Shown: piece by piece, positions 1,301 through 49,959 of the stretch
Numbering within the stretch: position 1 is the first letter of the stretch
How the letters are laid out: every line of letters begins with the position of its first letter
NCBI GenBank assembly: GCA_001002135.1
Contig: LCLP01000001.1
Location: 78,108 to 142,107 of the forward strand
Reading direction: 5' to 3'
Length of the DNA: 64,000 bases
Origin: Candidatus Pacebacteria bacterium GW2011_GWA1_46_10
Lineage (GTDB): Bacteria; Patescibacteriota; Microgenomatia; UBA1400; PJMF01
Program-made: the position numbers and the translations under genes
Notes under the pieces: model-generated
The model's database searches: none
What the model was told of the DNA's origin: nothing
What the model saw: the letters and a program-made list of their open reading frames with translations, nothing else

Positions 1301-2481
1301 TTTTTGATTTTCAAAGTGTTATCCACGGCTTCCCACAACTCCCGTGAATCACCCTCGTACCCGAGAGACCAAATGGCAACGCCGGCCAAATCCAGTTGGT
1401 TGACATAGTCCAGTTTATAAGTAATCGAGCGCGCGTCTTCGTAGTACACTAGGTAGTAGCGGCCGTTTTTGATGTAGCTTAGATACGGGGCGAGCGCGTT
1501 TTCATCCCAGTGTTCGACTACCTCCAGTTCTTCCTTTTGGGTGAGCAGTTCTTTGACTCGTTTAAAACTGGCTGTCGCGCCTGATTGTGGAAGAGTGAAT
1601 GATTCTGGCTCTTGAGAAGTGGTTTCCCATTCGTAACCATAAAAGGGGATGCCCAGCAGCAGTTTATCAGGTGAGGTTTTTTTCACGAAATCTTTGAGAT
1701 AGGTGTTGATACTCTCTTTCCAACTGGTTTCTTTTTGGAAAAGTGGCGCTACAGGGCCAGCTCGCAGAGAGGAACTGCGGTGAAAGTCGTAGGCCATCAC
1801 CACAATGTAATCTACTAGTGGGGCAATTTTTTCGACTTCCCAGATCATTTGCTTACTACTGGCGGCGGCATACATGTCTACCGTTAACTGGATGTCTTCG
1901 TACGTTTCGTTCAAATGCTGGCGGAACTGACTGATGAATTGGGTATAACGCTCGCGTAGTGCTGGCGGCGCATCACCGATGTACTCGATGTCTACATTGA
2001 TACCGTTAAAAGGATAGGCCAGGAGCAGTGAATCAACTGCTTGGAAAAATGTGGTCTGGGCTGATGGCGAGGAGAGGAATTGTTCAATAGTGTCATTATC
2101 AAACTGTGACAAGACTACTTCTGTTTTGCCGCCATACGTCTTAGTTAATTGGTTGGCGGCCAAAAACTCTTCTGATTGAAGTTGATAGTACCCTGGCTCA
2201 GCGTTGCCGTTTACTGTGGTGACGATGTTGCCGTCAGCGTCAATGCTCAAGGCAAAATACGCCAAGTGGGTTAATTCAGGTTGGAGAGTGGCTGTCTTGA
2301 GGTTCCAGTAGGGCAGAAAGCCATAGACAATTTTTTGGGTTTTCAAATGGGGAAAAAATGGCAGAAACCGGGAAAGTGAGCTAGTCCCCAATGGCGAGGA
2401 AAGCGGTGGTTCCACCAAGACCCAAATCAAGACGAGTGCCACGATTAACCCCAAGAGAATACCGTTAATGATTTTTTTCAC
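1297..2481 (-). CDS. Glycoside hydrolase family 18 (chitinase-like) protein with an N-terminal membrane anchor
   Basis: N-terminal TM helix. A GH18-like motif GINVDIEYIG (DxDxE) and MAYDFH (MxYD) are present. The Tyr/Trp-rich TIM-barrel pattern is typical of GH18. Confidence 0.6.
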   Translation of the reverse strand: MKKIINGILLGLIVALVLIWVLVEPPLSSPLGTSSLSRFLPFFPHLKTQKIVYGFLPYWNLKTATLQPELTHLAYFALSIDADGNIVTTVNGNAEPGYYQLQSEEFLAANQLTKTYGGKTEVVLSQFDNDTIEQFLSSPSAQTTFFQAVDSLLLAYPFNGINVDIEYIGDAPPALRERYTQFISQFRQHLNETYEDIQLTVDMYAAASSKQMIWEVEKIAPLVDYIVVMAYDFHRSSSLRAGPVAPLFQKETSWKESINTYLKDFVKKTSPDKLLLGIPFYGYEWETTSQEPESFTLPQSGATASFKRVKELLTQKEELEVVEHWDENALAPYLSYIKNGRYYLVYYEDARSITYKLDYVNQLDLAGVAIWSLGYEGDSRELWEAVDNTLKIKN

Positions 2482-2507: not shown

Positions 2508-4922
2508 TTACGGGGTGGCGGGGGGTTGGGCGCCTGTGTCGGTTTCAATCACGGTTTCTTCTTCGTTGGTGTAGTGTTTTTCGTAGATAATCTTGCCTTG
2601 TTCGTCCACCGCGCGATTACAGTCGCCGCAATACAGTGGCGTGACCGGGTCTTGATACAGTGTGTGGGTTTCTAAAATGAGTCCCTCGACTACCTCGCCG
2701 TACGCTGGCGGCAAGCCGGTTTCTGGTTTAATCCAGACCTCTTTTTGGACAATGCTGGAACGGGAAGGTTTACCTTCAGTCCAGTAGTACTCTTCATTGG
2801 TTTCGGTGCACTCGGTGTCTGTGAGGTCTTTTGGCAGACCGCTGGGGCAGACCGTTCCCTCGATCACGTCGGCCGGCTTTTCTTGCCAAACTGGTTCTTG
2901 GTCTCTCAAGACATAGCTCATGATATCGTTGAAGATTGGGGCGGCACCGGTGACGCCGGAGGCAATGTAGCTCATTTGTGAGTTGTCATTGTTGCCCACC
3001 CAAGTGACGGTCAAAAATTCCGGCGTGTAACCGATAGTCCAGTTATCTTTAAGATCGTTAGTAGTACCGGTTTTGACACTGACTATTTGATCAGGAATAA
3101 CCAGTTCGGAGTTACTCCCGAAAGCCAAGGTACGAGCATTGTTGTCCTGTAAAATGTGGCTCACTAGATACGCCGGAGCAGCTGCTATCACTCGCTCGGC
3201 CTCGCCGCGCCAGTGAGCATAAGGATCTTCTTGGAGTTCCTTAAGATCAGCTTTCCGCTGCTCAAGATCTATTTCCTCCAACACTTCCCCCTTAAAGTTT
3301 TCTACTTTGATGATTGGGGTAAGTGGGATTTTGACGCCTTGACTGGCTAGTGCACCAAAAGCCTGAGCCATATCGATCATTCGTACCTCACCCCCGCCTA
3401 GCGCCAGTGAAGGGCCGTAGTTGGCTGGGTCGTCCCAGCCAGTGATGCCCATTTTTTTAGCTTGGTTAATGAGCGTAGGGATGCTGATGGTTTCGATTAC
3501 TTTCACCGCCGGGATGTTGAGTGAGTTCCCGAGGGCTTGTCTCACTGTGACCGGTCCCTTGAAATCACCGGTGTAGTTTTTGGGGCAGTACTCCGGTTGA
3601 TTTGGCAGTTTAATACAGGTAGGAATATCGAGTAAAAGTGAGCCGGGATTGAGAGTTTTTTCTTGGAAAGCGGTGGCATAGACAATGGGCTTGATCGATG
3701 AACCAGGTTGACGTCTGGAGAGTGTCACGTTGACTTGGCCATCATGTTCACTGTCGAAGTAGTTCCTTGAGCCAATCATGGCCAAGATTTCACCGGTGTT
3801 TGGTTTGGTGATCAAGGCTGCTCCATTCCCCACTCGCAGGCCGGCTAAGTCGTCAATCTCGGCTGAGAGTGAAGCCTGGGCGGCTTCTTGTAAGTCAATA
3901 TCCAGACTGGTGGTCACTCGTAGGCCACCTTTTTCCACTGTTTCCTCGCCGTACTTTTCGTATAAAAGATCGCGGACGTAAAAAACAAAATGCGGTGCTC
4001 TGATATCAGTGGTTTTCAGGGCAAATTGCAAGGGAGTACCTCTGGCTTCTTCTGCTTGTAGGGGGGTAATAAAGCCCTCTTCGGCCATTCGCCGCAGCAC
4101 CTCTGCCTGGCGGTTTTTGGCACGGTTCGGATCAGAGCCGAATGGTGAGTAGAGACTGGGGGCTTGTGGCAGGCCAGTCAGCATCGCTGCTTCAGGCAAG
4201 GTTAAATCTTTAGCGCTCTTATCAAAGTAGTAATTGGCGGCTGACTCAATACCTACGGCGGTTCCCCCATAGGAAATGTAATTGAGGTACATTTCCAAGA
4301 TTTCTTCTTTACTGTAGATAATTTCGGTCATGATGGCCAAGACGGCTTCTTTCGTTTTCCGTTGGAAAGATTTTTCGTTCGTCAGCAGCGCGTTTTTCAC
4401 CAGTTGTTGAGTGATCGTTGAGCCACCTTGGAGTTGCTCGCCGGTAAAGTTATTTTTAATGGCCCGCAGAATCCCTTCCAGATCAAAGCCGAAGTGACCA
4501 TAGAAATTTTTATCCTCGATAGCGATGGTTGCCTGCAAGACGTGGGGCGGCAAGGTTTCTAGTTGAATAGGGATTCGGTTTTCGTCGACAAACACTTCAT
4601 AAAGCAAGACGCCATTGCGGTCAAAGATCTGAGTGCTGACGGCGAAGTTTTCTTGCGAGGTGAGCCGGCGGGGGGAGGGTAAATCCTTGATGAGGTAAGC
4701 CACGATCGCCAGTCCTGAAAAAAAGAGGGCCAAGAGGCTGTAGCGCCAGAGCGGGTTGGTAACGGGGAGAGTGAGGGCTTTGAAAAACCGACGTAACTTA
4801 CTCAAGTTGTTCGGTGCTTGATGAAGGCCCTTTTCCAGAGTATGAGGGAGACCAAGCAAAGCTTTTTTTAAAACCGTCAGTTTCTCAGTGCGGCTTTTTT
4901 GAGCAGGATAAAAAGTATTCAT
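2508..4922 (-). CDS. ponA: Class A penicillin-binding protein (bifunctional transglycosylase/transpeptidase)
   Basis: GT51 motifs IAIEDKNFYGHFGFD and GGSTITQQLVKN. Transpeptidase motifs SSIKP (SxxK), SLN (SxN) and KTGTT (KTG). N-terminal TM helix. Confidence 0.9.
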   Translation of the reverse strand: MNTFYPAQKSRTEKLTVLKKALLGLPHTLEKGLHQAPNNLSKLRRFFKALTLPVTNPLWRYSLLALFFSGLAIVAYLIKDLPSPRRLTSQENFAVSTQIFDRNGVLLYEVFVDENRIPIQLETLPPHVLQATIAIEDKNFYGHFGFDLEGILRAIKNNFTGEQLQGGSTITQQLVKNALLTNEKSFQRKTKEAVLAIMTEIIYSKEEILEMYLNYISYGGTAVGIESAANYYFDKSAKDLTLPEAAMLTGLPQAPSLYSPFGSDPNRAKNRQAEVLRRMAEEGFITPLQAEEARGTPLQFALKTTDIRAPHFVFYVRDLLYEKYGEETVEKGGLRVTTSLDIDLQEAAQASLSAEIDDLAGLRVGNGAALITKPNTGEILAMIGSRNYFDSEHDGQVNVTLSRRQPGSSIKPIVYATAFQEKTLNPGSLLLDIPTCIKLPNQPEYCPKNYTGDFKGPVTVRQALGNSLNIPAVKVIETISIPTLINQAKKMGITGWDDPANYGPSLALGGGEVRMIDMAQAFGALASQGVKIPLTPIIKVENFKGEVLEEIDLEQRKADLKELQEDPYAHWRGEAERVIAAAPAYLVSHILQDNNARTLAFGSNSELVIPDQIVSVKTGTTNDLKDNWTIGYTPEFLTVTWVGNNDNSQMSYIASGVTGAAPIFNDIMSYVLRDQEPVWQEKPADVIEGTVCPSGLPKDLTDTECTETNEEYYWTEGKPSRSSIVQKEVWIKPETGLPPAYGEVVEGLILETHTLYQDPVTPLYCGDCNRAVDEQGKIIYEKHYTNEEETVIETDTGAQPPATP

Positions 4923-22931: not shown

Positions 22932-22957
22932 GATGAAAATTGTAGCATCTTAAAGTG

Positions 22958-23030
22958 TAGCAAGGGTGAGATTTGAACTCACGACCTGCGGTTTATGAAT
23001 CCGCTGCTCTAACCACTGAGCTACCTTGCC
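22958..23030 (-). tRNA. tRNA with CAT anticodon (elongator Met, or tRNA-Ile2/lysidine)
   Basis: Reverse complement GGCAAGGTAGCTCAGTGGTTAGAGCAGCGGATTCATAAACCGCAGGTCGTGAGTTCAAATCTCACCCTTGCTA. It has a cloverleaf with the GTTCAAATC T-loop and CAT at positions 34-36. Coordinates are approximate to a few nt. Confidence 0.75.
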
Positions 23031-23104
23031 GCCGAATGGTCAATTATACCAACCACCAGATACTTTGACGAGAACTCCAGACAAGGCTATAATAACCGAT
23101 CTGA

Positions 23105-23173
23105 CGCGGGATAGTGTACGGTGCACGTGAGGCTCATAATCTCGCAGGCTGGGTTCGACTCCCAGTCCCGCAA
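23105..23173 (+). tRNA. Initiator-like tRNA-fMet (CAT) with a C1:A72 mismatch
   Basis: CGCGGGA...CTCATAA...GGGTTCGACTCCCAGTCCCGCAA. The 5' CGCGGG / 3' CCCGCA gives C1 opposite A72, as in bacterial initiator tRNA. The anticodon loop is CTCATAA. The D-arm is short. Coordinates are approximate. Confidence 0.65.
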
Positions 23174-23175
23174 CA

Positions 23176-48430: not shown

Positions 48431-48528
48431 GTCAAAATCACACCTTTTTTTTTCGCTTAATATTCGCTACTGTATATTGAAGTGGTAAAGCCGGTAGGAG
48501 GCTTTTTTATTTCTAAAAGCCAAAAGGA

Positions 48529-49116
48529 TTGATGTTGCAAGTTATTTTAGATGTCGAGACGCAGAAAATTTTTGACGAAGTCGGTGGCTACTTTCCTGAT
48601 CGGTTGAAGATTTCTTTCGCCGGCATCAATGTCAGAAGCGGCTACGGTGAGGCCGGTGAGTTTCGCTCCTACTTTGAAAAAGATATTCCTAAACTGCTGT
48701 CGCTGCTGGAAAAGGCTGATGTAATCGTCGGTTTTAATATTGATGATTTTGACTTGCCCACTTTCACACCATACTACAACGGGGATGTTAGTCGGTTTCC
48801 CACTTTGGACATTATGAAACGGATTAAAAACAGCACTGGTCACCGGGTGGGTTTGGACGCCGTGGCCAAAGAGACACTTGGCAAAGGCAAGATCGGCAAT
48901 GGCATGGACGCGATTCAGTTTTTCAAAAACAAAGAGTGGAAGAAACTGGAGAAATATTGTCTGCAGGATGTGAAAGTGACGCGGGACTTGCTGGATTATG
49001 GCTATTCCAAAGGTCAGGTGAAGTTCCGCAATAAATGGAATCGGCTCGTCACCGCGCCGGTGGATTTTACCTATACTCCCAAAAAACATACTGGGATCCA
49101 GATGAGTCTCATCTAA
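48529..49116 (+). CDS. DEDDy-type 3'-5' exonuclease (RNase H-like superfamily)
   Basis: Exo I LDVETQ (DxE). Exo II VGFNIDDFDLP. Exo III YCLQDVKVTRDL (YxxxD). The fully overlapping antisense ORF has no motifs. Confidence 0.65.
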   Translation: MMLQVILDVETQKIFDEVGGYFPDRLKISFAGINVRSGYGEAGEFRSYFEKDIPKLLSLLEKADVIVGFNIDDFDLPTFTPYYNGDVSRFPTLDIMKRIKNSTGHRVGLDAVAKETLGKGKIGNGMDAIQFFKNKEWKKLEKYCLQDVKVTRDLLDYGYSKGQVKFRNKWNRLVTAPVDFTYTPKKHTGIQMSLI

Positions 49117-49159
49117 TTTTTCCACAGTGTCATTTAAATGTCAGGTTCGGTCAGCATAC

Positions 49160-49378
49160 TGAAAATGTCTTGGCGGTATGCCGCCGAAGTTCATCTAGTA
49201 GAATACCTGGTTTGTCACCCAGGTGGTGCGGGTGCAAATCCCGTCGGCGGCGCCAAGACATTTTTGACTTTTAATTTTCTATTGCTATAGTACGAATACC
49301 TGGGTGACAAAAGATATTCTTCGAAGGATGAACTTCGATGAAACCCAAAAGACCCCCGATAAAATCGGGGGTTTTTTG
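49160..49378 (+). ncRNA. Structured RNA leader (riboswitch-like) upstream of the Nudix genes. It has a three-way-junction aptamer-like fold, a duplicated switching segment and an intrinsic terminator.
   Basis: Long-range helix AAAATGTCTTGGCG (49162-49175) pairs with CGCCAAGACATTTT (49251-49264). Second tier GCCGCCGA pairs with TCGGCGGC. Inner hairpins are ACCTGG-tttgtcac-CCAGGT and GCGGG-tgcaaat-CCCG. The duplicated segment GAATACCTGGGTGACAAA (49294-49311) is complementary to TTTGTCACCCAGGT of the first hairpin. Terminator: CCCCCGAtaaaaTCGGGGG followed by TTTTTT (49351-49377). Confidence 0.4.
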
Positions 49379-49416
49379 ATGGGCTGAAACTATCCTGTCG
49401 GTGTTAAAATTCCCCT

Positions 49417-49959
49417 GTGGTAAAACAAACTCAATTGTCCCCGAAGATTTGCATGACTGCCTCTGGTTTTCTGGTGCACAACGGCAAAGTCTTGCTGATT
49501 AAGCACAAAAAACTCGGTTACTGGCTGGCACCGGGCGGACACGTGGAAGAAGGTGAGTTGCCCCATCAGGCTGCGGAGCGGGAAGTGTGGGAAGAGACTG
49601 GTCTGAAGGTGAAAGCGGTTTCCGCCGGCACGCTTTTGCAATCGAGTAGTCAGACCAGTTACCACCCGCTGCCGTTTGCGATTAATCTGCATTGGATCAG
49701 CAAAGAAAATTACCAAGCACGGCTCAAAAGCAATAATCCAACCAAGCCTCACCCAAACAAACTCTGGCCCAAGGGCTGCGAACAGCACGTCGTCTTGGTG
49801 CATTTAGTACAATCTACTGGCAGCTTGGATTTCAAACAAAATCTGGAAGAAACGGATGGTATCGGTTGGTTCGGTCTCAAAGAGTTAGAGGAACTGGAAA
49901 CGATTCAGGAAATCAGAGAGGAAGCCAAGCTGGCACTGGAATATGGAAAAAATGAGTAA
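49417..49959 (+). CDS. Nudix hydrolase
   Basis: Nudix box [24 protein letters not shown] (GX5EX7REUXEEXGU). The likely start is an internal ATG near 49453. Confidence 0.8.

Follow-up and report, generated by a model that had tools for sequence, protein, structure and literature searches.

A probable two-RNA cassette of Patescibacteria combining a tRNA-derived RNA with a downstream antisense small RNA

The DNA considered here, called the window, is a stretch of 64,000 nucleotides (nt) from contig LCLP01000001.1 of Candidatus Pacebacteria bacterium GW2011_GWA1_46_10, a Pacebacteria-like Patescibacterium. Its proteins include HrcA, DnaK, DnaJ, NusA, IF-2, PNPase, SOD, an RNase-H-fold exonuclease, two Nudix proteins and the products of the Suf operon. 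Between these housekeeping genes, in the gap that separates the exonuclease gene from the tandem Nudix genes, positions 49160-49378 belong to a self-contained cassette region (49138-49378), which an earlier note had described as a transcription-attenuating riboswitch placed before the Nudix genes. We propose that this region is probably a two-RNA cassette, in which a tRNA-derived RNA and a downstream antisense small RNA (sRNA) of about 80 nt have co-evolved to base-pair with each other. Ten contigs of the same population, obtained from independent assemblies, encode an identical exonuclease, and the nine that were compared with the window across the region exhibit zero differences in the compared stretches, so that the 8-nt anticodon loop described below is no assembly error; being identical to the window, these contigs therefore bring no covariation information.

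The region is strongly structured (fold z-score of -6.8). The actual sequence of 49100-49420 harbors two perfect inverted repeats of 14 nt and one of 11 nt, against a longest perfect repeat of 12 nt, and none of 14 nt, in 2000 dinucleotide shuffles of the same segment. All the helices reported in the earlier note were retrieved, among them the 14-bp closing helix, which is a perfect inverted repeat, the helix GCCGCCGA / TCGGCGGC stacked on it (49180-49187 / 49244-49251), the hairpins ACCTGG..CCAGGT and GCGGG..CCCG, and the strong terminator. On the contrary, the junction that they form is four-way and not three-way as proposed, the D-arm (GUUC/GAAU) having been overlooked. The partial direct copy GAATACCTGG is present (49201-49210 / 49294-49303), with the restriction that its 'GAAT' part occurs in this genome only and is absent from homologous cassettes. 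Similarly, the 14-bp alternative helix exists (49211-49224 / 49298-49311) and is longer than claimed, as an extra block of 11 bp (49185-49195 / 49327-49337) makes it an interrupted duplex of roughly 40 nt. The overall design, two mutually exclusive folds followed by an intrinsic terminator, is conserved in nine homologous cassettes, where the compact fold and the alternative helix are both kept by compensatory changes.

These homologs come from relatives found by a protein search with the exonuclease (contigs bear L numbers below), and the exonucleases of the cassette carriers are 80-84% identical. Assembly GCA_003524865.1 (contig DQGQ01000018.1) is among these carriers. The nine distinct cassettes fall into two paralogous types. 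Type A, found in the window, L040, L047 and on the minus strand of L043 and L052, has a T-loop UGCRAAU, no G18 and an NCCA-AGAC trailer. Type B, found in L039, L042, L051 and on the plus strand of L043, has a canonical D-loop and T-loop, U14, U73 and no CCA. All nine share A8 and A9, an acceptor stem of GCCGCCG type, an anticodon loop of the form NNN-GUCA-N, a leader-trailer helix, a promoter (P2), a complementary segment and a terminator. Both types coexist in some genomes, where type A lies in inverted orientation between SOD and the exonuclease gene, and type B precedes the Nudix genes. Thus in L043 the two cassettes (1629-1851, minus strand, type A; 3819-4044, plus strand, type B) flank the exonuclease gene, as they likewise do in L049 and L050.

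The compact fold corresponds to a tRNA cloverleaf. Indeed, the Rfam scan called for by the earlier note gave the tRNA model RF00005 as its only significant match (51.5 bits for a gathering score of 29) and no riboswitch family, and the homologous cassettes score 37-49 bits with the same model. Riboswitch and sRNA classes of Rfam were searched in the whole window at gathering thresholds and in the region at E <= 10, which returned the tRNA together with terminator look-alikes. The minimum free energy (MFE) structure of the isolated tRNA-like sequence is the cloverleaf, and RNAalifold independently predicts the cloverleaf and the terminator. Among the nine copies, 95.5% of the cloverleaf cells are paired, a value reached in 0 of 500 shuffles, and 10 of the 22 pairs have changed on both sides; sliding the partners leaves at most 57% of the cells paired. 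Covariation and an Rfam score above the tRNA threshold, as in a canonical cloverleaf, are therefore both found. ARAGORN missed this RNA at default settings and, at a 90% threshold, gave it an anticodon loop of 8 nt and the label tRNA-?(Thr|Asp)(tgtc). A 50-codon open reading frame overlapping the tRNA-like gene (49138-49290) is called protein-coding in the public assemblies L019, L020, L024 and L026, and is almost certainly spurious.

The tertiary core and the anticodon loop depart from those of canonical tRNAs. When compared with U8, A14, G18-G19 and U54-U55-C56, all nine copies present A8, type A presents A18 and G55, and type B presents U14; in the window, the D-loop lacks G18 (A18), the T-loop UGCAAAU places G55, and the 5' leader pairs with the discriminator and with the encoded CCA. 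The tRNA-Met genes of the same window are, by comparison, canonical, with U8, GG and UUC, no encoded CCA and no flanking helix. Instead of the canonical loop (7 nt, U33, purine 37), the anticodon loop has 8 nt in every copy and effectively 10 nt in five, pair 31:39 being mismatched in five of nine, and the base preceding G34 is A or C in two. Type A and E. coli tRNA-Asp (aspU) have identical D-stem and T-stem sequences. The Thr-type pairs G1-C72 and C2-G71 occur in all copies, and G73, the Asp identity element, in one of nine, the other eight having U73. Isotype assignment was attempted and abandoned, as type A resembles tRNA-Asp, a panel of 24 tRNAs offers no clear counterpart to type B, and ARAGORN hesitates between Thr and Asp. 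A link to the group I introns located at position 35/36 of Patescibacteria tRNA-Asp (PMC13011429) was likewise discarded, as no intron is present here and the extra base lies at another site. In its sequence features, the tRNA-like RNA is tRNA-derived and non-canonical, and an invariant GUCA is embedded in its anticodon loop, which is enlarged to 8-10 nt.

Directly after the trailer, the nine cassettes present P2 in the form TTGACA-N16/17-TATAKT. Its TTGAC and TATAnT columns are invariant whereas the spacer varies, which suggests selection for a promoter. Sites of similar strength number 13 in the 64-kb window, both strands included, two of them being the promoters of the tRNA-Met genes. These two genes (22957-23174), elongator and initiator, are divergent and encode no CCA, and each is preceded by a near-consensus sigma-70 promoter with a very short leader, indicating that the organism uses sigma-70-type promoters. 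As the invariant P2 sits between the tRNA-like RNA and the segment complementary to it, this segment is most likely a separate sRNA of about 80 nt. In every copy, the complementary region starts about 7 nt past the -10 hexamer, at the predicted 5' end of the RNA. In each of the nine cassettes, the terminator hairpin forms whichever fold is adopted, cloverleaf or long-range duplex. Just 5' of it, L047, L039, L042, L043 (plus strand) and L051 harbor a conserved motif AAGUCAA(A/G)AA, which repeats the GUCA of the tRNA-like loop, and GAUGAAACCC stands in its place in the window and the other type A copies. A peptide encoded in the sRNA was considered and rejected: the frame starting in the seed is not conserved, with only 3-7 codons in L040, L043 (minus strand) and L052 (minus strand), and the peptides are dissimilar.

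The evidence for an antisense pair lies in the duplex between both RNAs, for which tRNA-like nucleotides 1-48 were aligned without gaps to sRNA segments, the seed (block 1) being anchored on the invariant UGAC, independently of pairing. All nine copies present 13-18 consecutive tRNA-like:sRNA pairs. In total, 86.9% of the duplex cells are paired; shuffles give 72.3 +/- 1.6%, none of 500 reaching the actual value, and slid partners 32-44%. Changes on both sides affect 16 pairs and 47 cells, the latter against 20. When the duplex energies of the nine anticodon arms with the nine sRNA 5' ends were computed in all combinations, the cognate duplex (-20.9 to -29.2 kcal/mol) was the best in every row and every column. 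For the two paralogs of L043, which coexist in one genome, cognate energies are -22.9 and -29.2 kcal/mol and cross energies -9.8 and -6.8 kcal/mol, so that these two cassettes appear orthogonal. The complementarity is thus extended, specific to the cognate partner and maintained in evolution, as in antisense pairs. Within the duplex core, G.U appositions outnumber A.C by 19 to 4, which points to selection on the RNA of the plus strand and not on DNA. In addition, the sRNA does not consistently match the 5' strand of the anticodon stem, so that the 5' end of the sRNA would be unable to fold back and its seed would stay unstructured. When the full-length transcript is folded, the MFE structure is the long-range duplex in all nine cassettes, 2-15 kcal/mol below the forced cloverleaf.

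The leader-trailer helix that closes the acceptor arm is also present in the nine cassettes, with four to five unrelated sequences (GUCUUGG/CCAAGAC, ACUCCA/UGGAGU, CUCUGGC/GCCAGAG, UGUUCCGG/CCGGAACA and GCUCUG/CAGAGC), and surpasses shuffled leaders in eight of them (p <= 0.014). Among type A copies, the core of its 5' arm, GUCUUGG, is conserved (49167-49173). Upstream of all nine cassettes lies a block AAGTTACGGTTTnTGTCAGGTT-N10-CATACT/GATACT/AAAATT, whose -10-like hexamer ends 5-7 nt 5' of this arm and which we infer to be the promoter P1 of the tRNA-like gene. The region would as such comprise two adjacent RNA genes, each with its own promoter, P2 being strongly supported by its sequence conservation and P1 corresponding to a conserved block. 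The features of the cassette and of the adjoining Nudix gene are collected in Table 1.

Table 1. Predicted features of the cassette region and of the start of the first Nudix gene (window coordinates)
Feature	Position	Strand	Basis or remark
Upstream block, putative promoter P1 of the tRNA-like gene: ATGTCAGGTT ... CATACT	49138..49160	+	conserved block
Leader-trailer helix, 5' arm	49162..49175	+	14-bp perfect inverted repeat
tRNA-like RNA, type A	49180..49252	+	RF00005, cloverleaf MFE, covariation, RNAalifold
tRNA-like acceptor stem	49180-86 / 49245-51	+	cloverleaf
tRNA-like anticodon loop, 8 nt, UUUGUCAC	49211-49218	+	cloverleaf
Leader-trailer helix, 3' arm, including discriminator and encoded CCA	49251..49264	+	14-bp perfect inverted repeat
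tRNA-like discriminator G	49252	+	followed by CCA at 49253-55
Promoter P2: TTGACT, 16 nt with TG, TATAGT	49264..49291	+	10/12 matches and extended -10 TG
Predicted antisense sRNA of about 81 nt	49298..49378	+	duplex covariation, cognate specificity; start inferred from P2
sRNA seed, complementary to the anticodon loop and the 3' strand of its stem	49298-49311	+	complementarity
sRNA second block, complementary to tRNA-like nucleotides 6-16	49327-49337	+	complementarity
Intrinsic terminator, shared by both transcription units	49346..49378	+	in 9/9 cassettes, stems differ
Nudix extended -10 promoter TGTTAAAAT, outside the cassette	49402-49410	+	ends 6 nt before GTG
First Nudix gene, GTG start codon	49417	+	N-terminus aligns with L001

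The cassette is distributed patchily. It is absent from 16 more distant related species that share the exonuclease-Nudix order, with no tRNA at any of these loci, and the region is likewise devoid of it in L054 and in all relatives of 78% identity or less. Where both genes are directly adjacent in the 16 species, the gap between them ranges from a few to about 180 nt. In some relatives (L043 at 2582-3622, minus strand, L037, L046, L049 and L050), a class I/II or class V aminotransferase gene is found on the opposite strand between the exonuclease and Nudix genes, upstream of the type B cassette where the latter is present, which marks the gap as a variable spot. L039 (994-1217) and L041 harbor an intact type B cassette, and L040, whose exonuclease protein is identical to that of L039, presents a rearranged 3' remnant of type B right after the exonuclease stop (815-900), followed by a complete type A cassette. 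L036 (2260-2369, minus strand) and likewise L037 and L038 have kept, between SOD and the exonuclease gene, a degenerate and orphan set of type A promoter, sRNA and terminator from which the tRNA-like gene is missing. Such a patchy distribution, with a swap of types, an sRNA-only lineage and absences, suggests an accessory module rather than an essential tRNA.

Degenerate and exact pattern scans for the anticodon arm, D-arm and T-arm in viral contigs, as well as an anticodon-arm scan of JGI metagenome contigs, retrieved only chance matches or an ordinary phage tRNA, and BLAST searches of phage and E. coli genome records with the cassette or the tRNA-like RNA as query returned nothing useful. 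Pfam scans of 28 proteins whose genes lie at 32-63 kb of the window detected no TROVE/Ro domain. Hallmarks of miniature inverted-repeat transposable elements were also looked for and dismissed, as an outer inverted repeat (49122-38 / 49404-20, 76% identity) and a 19-nt direct repeat are within chance range and their right-hand copies fall in the conserved Nudix promoter and N-terminus. Elsewhere at the locus, a terminator-like hairpin (GCCGGnnGGAGGC followed by a T-run, 48487-48511) is located just 5' of the exonuclease gene and is kept in relatives.

The features described above may be accommodated by other readings. In the window, a structured RNA, an alternative helix and a strong terminator indeed precede the Nudix genes, and the alternative helix is conserved, from which a metabolite-sensing riboswitch, either of a new class or a divergent ykkC/NAD-type, attenuating transcription into the tandem Nudix genes, had been proposed. 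This now appears extremely improbable, as the putative aptamer is a tRNA cloverleaf recognized by RF00005 and no riboswitch family matches the region at E <= 10, the best score being 13 bits for FMN with a threshold of 66. Neither fold overlaps the stem of the terminator, and a terminator compatible with both leaves no expression-platform logic. Moreover, the invariant P2 stands between the presumed aptamer and the switching sequence, type A cassettes in inverted orientation abut the 3' end of the SOD gene and have no gene downstream, and the 16 loci mentioned above keep the same synteny without any cassette. Past the terminator, the Nudix gene has its own conserved promoter, since a TGnTA(A/G)AAT motif is found 5-8 nt before its start in all relatives, including the cassette-free L001, L037, L052 and L054; with a -10 motif so close to the start codon, the Nudix mRNA is probably leaderless. 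Judged from motifs and synteny, the cassette is independent of the Nudix gene and is no riboswitch. Others might rather see a single cis-acting bistable transcript, where only the long RNA made from the upstream promoter would count, alternating between an extended hairpin and the cloverleaf closed by its helix, the internal promoter being secondary, which might for example gate the processing or the release of the tRNA-like RNA. No terminator separates the tRNA-like gene from the complementary segment, and the full-length MFE is the long-range duplex in nine of nine although the cloverleaf is transcribed first. We consider this proposal unlikely, given that the hexamers of P2 are invariant while its spacer drifts, that the complementary region begins at the predicted 5' end of the P2 transcript in every copy, and that an orphan copy consists of the sRNA only; the bistable transcript and the two-RNA model are nonetheless compatible with each other.

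An ordinary essential tRNA, tRNA-Asp (GUC) or tRNA-Thr (NGU), odd but tolerated, with a downstream repeat that would be incidental or expression-tuning, would agree with the Rfam score above threshold, with the type A core being nearest to E. coli tRNA-Asp (42-48 of 58 positions identical, compared to at most 40 for 23 other tRNAs), with the match of the family profile to aspU (E = 3.6e-5), and with three tRNAs per 64 kb, the density expected for a genome of roughly 1 Mb. In addition, 8-nt anticodon loops can function in translation, as in yeast mitochondrial tRNA-Thr (PMC3113583), and tRNA-Asp and tRNA-Asn genes of Patescibacteria are missed by standard tools (PMC13011429). Such a tRNA is nevertheless improbable in view of the altered universal core (A8 throughout, A18 and G55 in type A), which contrasts with the canonical tRNA-Met of the same genome, of G73 being kept in a single copy, of a base other than U before G34 in two and of a loop effectively of 10 nt in five. 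Two paralogs with the same GUCA loop coexist in one genome, contigs with identical exonucleases carry different cassette types, and the gene is absent from the syntenic site of close relatives and lost in the L036-L038 lineage, which has kept an sRNA remnant. Patchiness at the strain level, the two positions, both orientations, the remnants and an imperfect 19-nt direct repeat flanking the cassette (49159-77 / 49384-402, 15 of 19 matching) would fit a DNA-level element, whose inverted repeats would serve recombination or transposition, or would be the scars left by a small mobile element with a tRNA fragment, without any RNA function. We give very little credence to it, as the excess of G.U over A.C points to pairing of plus-strand RNA, promoter and terminator motifs are conserved, and one strand of the anticodon stem, selectively, lacks a complement; furthermore, the second copy of the direct repeat falls in a conserved region just 5' of the Nudix -10 motif, no transposase or integrase is found near the cassette, whose adjoining genes are housekeeping genes, and the 64-kb window contains no further copy. 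Several points also weigh against the two-RNA cassette that we favor. P1, P2, the 5' end of the sRNA and pairing in trans are all deduced from sequence, and the geometry of P1 is a poor match to sigma-70 spacing. The anchors of the duplex alignment were chosen by us, with block 3 set at the register giving most pairs, which favors this block, and the covariation counts represent non-independent events because the nine copies all come from one narrow clade. Finally, the comparison covers contigs, and the tRNA-like RNAs might still be the working tRNA-Asp or tRNA-Thr of these organisms.

According to the two-RNA reading, the sRNA would nucleate on the large anticodon loop and zip along the 3' strand of the stem, like known antisense RNAs, and its second block would then open the acceptor/D-arm junction of the tRNA-like RNA. 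Pairing would unfold or sequester the latter, and RNase III might then attack the duplex. Transcription reading through from the upstream promoter would moreover yield a fusion of both RNAs, with the cloverleaf as its first, kinetic fold and the long duplex as its thermodynamic ground state. The most likely role for these predicted RNAs is that of a closed regulator/target pair, for instance a toxic tRNA mimic held in check by an RNA antitoxin, or a mimic that is simply regulated. A more precise version, which we advance as a long shot, is an RNA-only toxin-antitoxin or abortive-infection-type module, in which the free and stable tRNA mimic would be harmful and the sRNA would keep it unfolded. 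Through its enlarged GUCA loop, the mimic might block ribosomes, cause frameshifting, or tie up either an aminoacyl-tRNA synthetase or an enzyme of tRNA modification; the strongly promoted sRNA would unfold the mimic or mark it for RNase III, and a stop of transcription would release it. Such a module would explain the cognate co-evolution, the orthogonal paralogs, the combination of a weak upstream and a strong downstream promoter, and the gain, loss and relocation observed between strains.

In the literature, no description was found of a tRNA-like RNA with a tandem-encoded, co-evolving antisense partner. If the pairing is real in cells, it would represent a new bacterial use of the tRNA scaffold, with an anticodon loop enlarged as a docking site for an adjacent sRNA, and would add an RNA-RNA regulatory or conflict module to the Patescibacteria, for which, to our knowledge, almost no non-coding RNA biology has been described. 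The cassette would also offer a natural case in which the complementarity of two same-strand RNAs is kept purely by compensatory evolution. On a practical side, the tRNA-like gene of this locus escaped ARAGORN and was labelled as a 50-aa protein in some assemblies, and riboswitch-like architectures deserve to be checked against tRNA models first.

Among known tRNA-shaped RNAs, the bacterial tRNA-Asp (GUC) shares with the cassette RNA its cloverleaf and a GUC in the anticodon loop, and type A has in addition the same D-stem and T-stem as E. coli aspU. On the contrary, the cassette RNA has a loop of 8-10 nt, A8, no G18, G55, an acceptor pair C2-G71 and mostly U73, its 3' end is paired with the leader, and a dedicated antisense partner is encoded alongside. 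The YrlA Y RNAs are tRNA-shaped as well, and their ends are closed by a stem so that no free CCA is available; in YrlA this stem extends the anticodon arm, whereas in the cassette RNA it extends the acceptor arm, and no Rfam match to YrlA was obtained in the region. We know of no cognate antisense RNA described for YrlA or for pseudo-tRNAs. The tRNA-Other pseudo-tRNA of Bacillus cereus is similarly a tRNA-shaped RNA that is no ordinary decoder (PMC3399842).

Anticodon loops of 8 nt are found in the +1 frameshift suppressors sufD and sufB2. Yeast mitochondrial tRNA-Thr1 also has one extra nucleotide in its anticodon loop, with a cloverleaf otherwise intact (PMC3113583). All these tRNAs with 8-nt loops are aminoacylated decoders with a canonical core, whereas the cassette RNA has an altered core and a loop that is often effectively of 10 nt, and appears to be the target of a co-evolving RNA. 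The T-box riboswitch also involves an RNA that pairs with a tRNA anticodon, followed by a terminator. The region gave no match to the T-box model RF00230 at E <= 10 and contains no Stem I, specifier loop or T-box motif; unlike in T-boxes, the pairing of about 35 nt would unfold the tRNA, the terminator does not compete and no antiterminator is possible, and neither an aminoacyl-tRNA synthetase nor an amino-acid gene lies downstream.

In the antisense pairs IS10 RNA-IN/RNA-OUT, ColE1 RNA I/RNA II and hok/sok, a single-stranded 5' end pairs with the loop of the partner and spreads down a strand of its stem. The cassette resembles them in this predicted loop-nucleated pairing. Their two RNAs, on the other hand, are transcribed from opposite strands of the same DNA, so that complementarity comes free, whereas both cassette RNAs are encoded in tandem on the same strand. 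Like the type VIII RNA toxin-antitoxin with the tRNA-sequestering CreT (PMC8501985), the cassette is a small two-RNA module tied to tRNA biology. CreT owes its action to codons on the ribosome, and its repressor is a CRISPR guide (PMC8501985), whereas the toxicity of the cassette RNA is hypothetical. The 3'ETS-leuZ sponge, cut from a tRNA precursor, is another tRNA-linked RNA, which differs in being located outside of the tRNA body (10.1101/2021.04.25.441314). With RNA-only toxin-antitoxin modules and sponges, the cassette shares cognate specificity, patchiness and the association of a structured, stable partner with a less structured one. In its predicted architecture, it is a new combination of known kinds of parts, so far present in one subclade of Patescibacteria.

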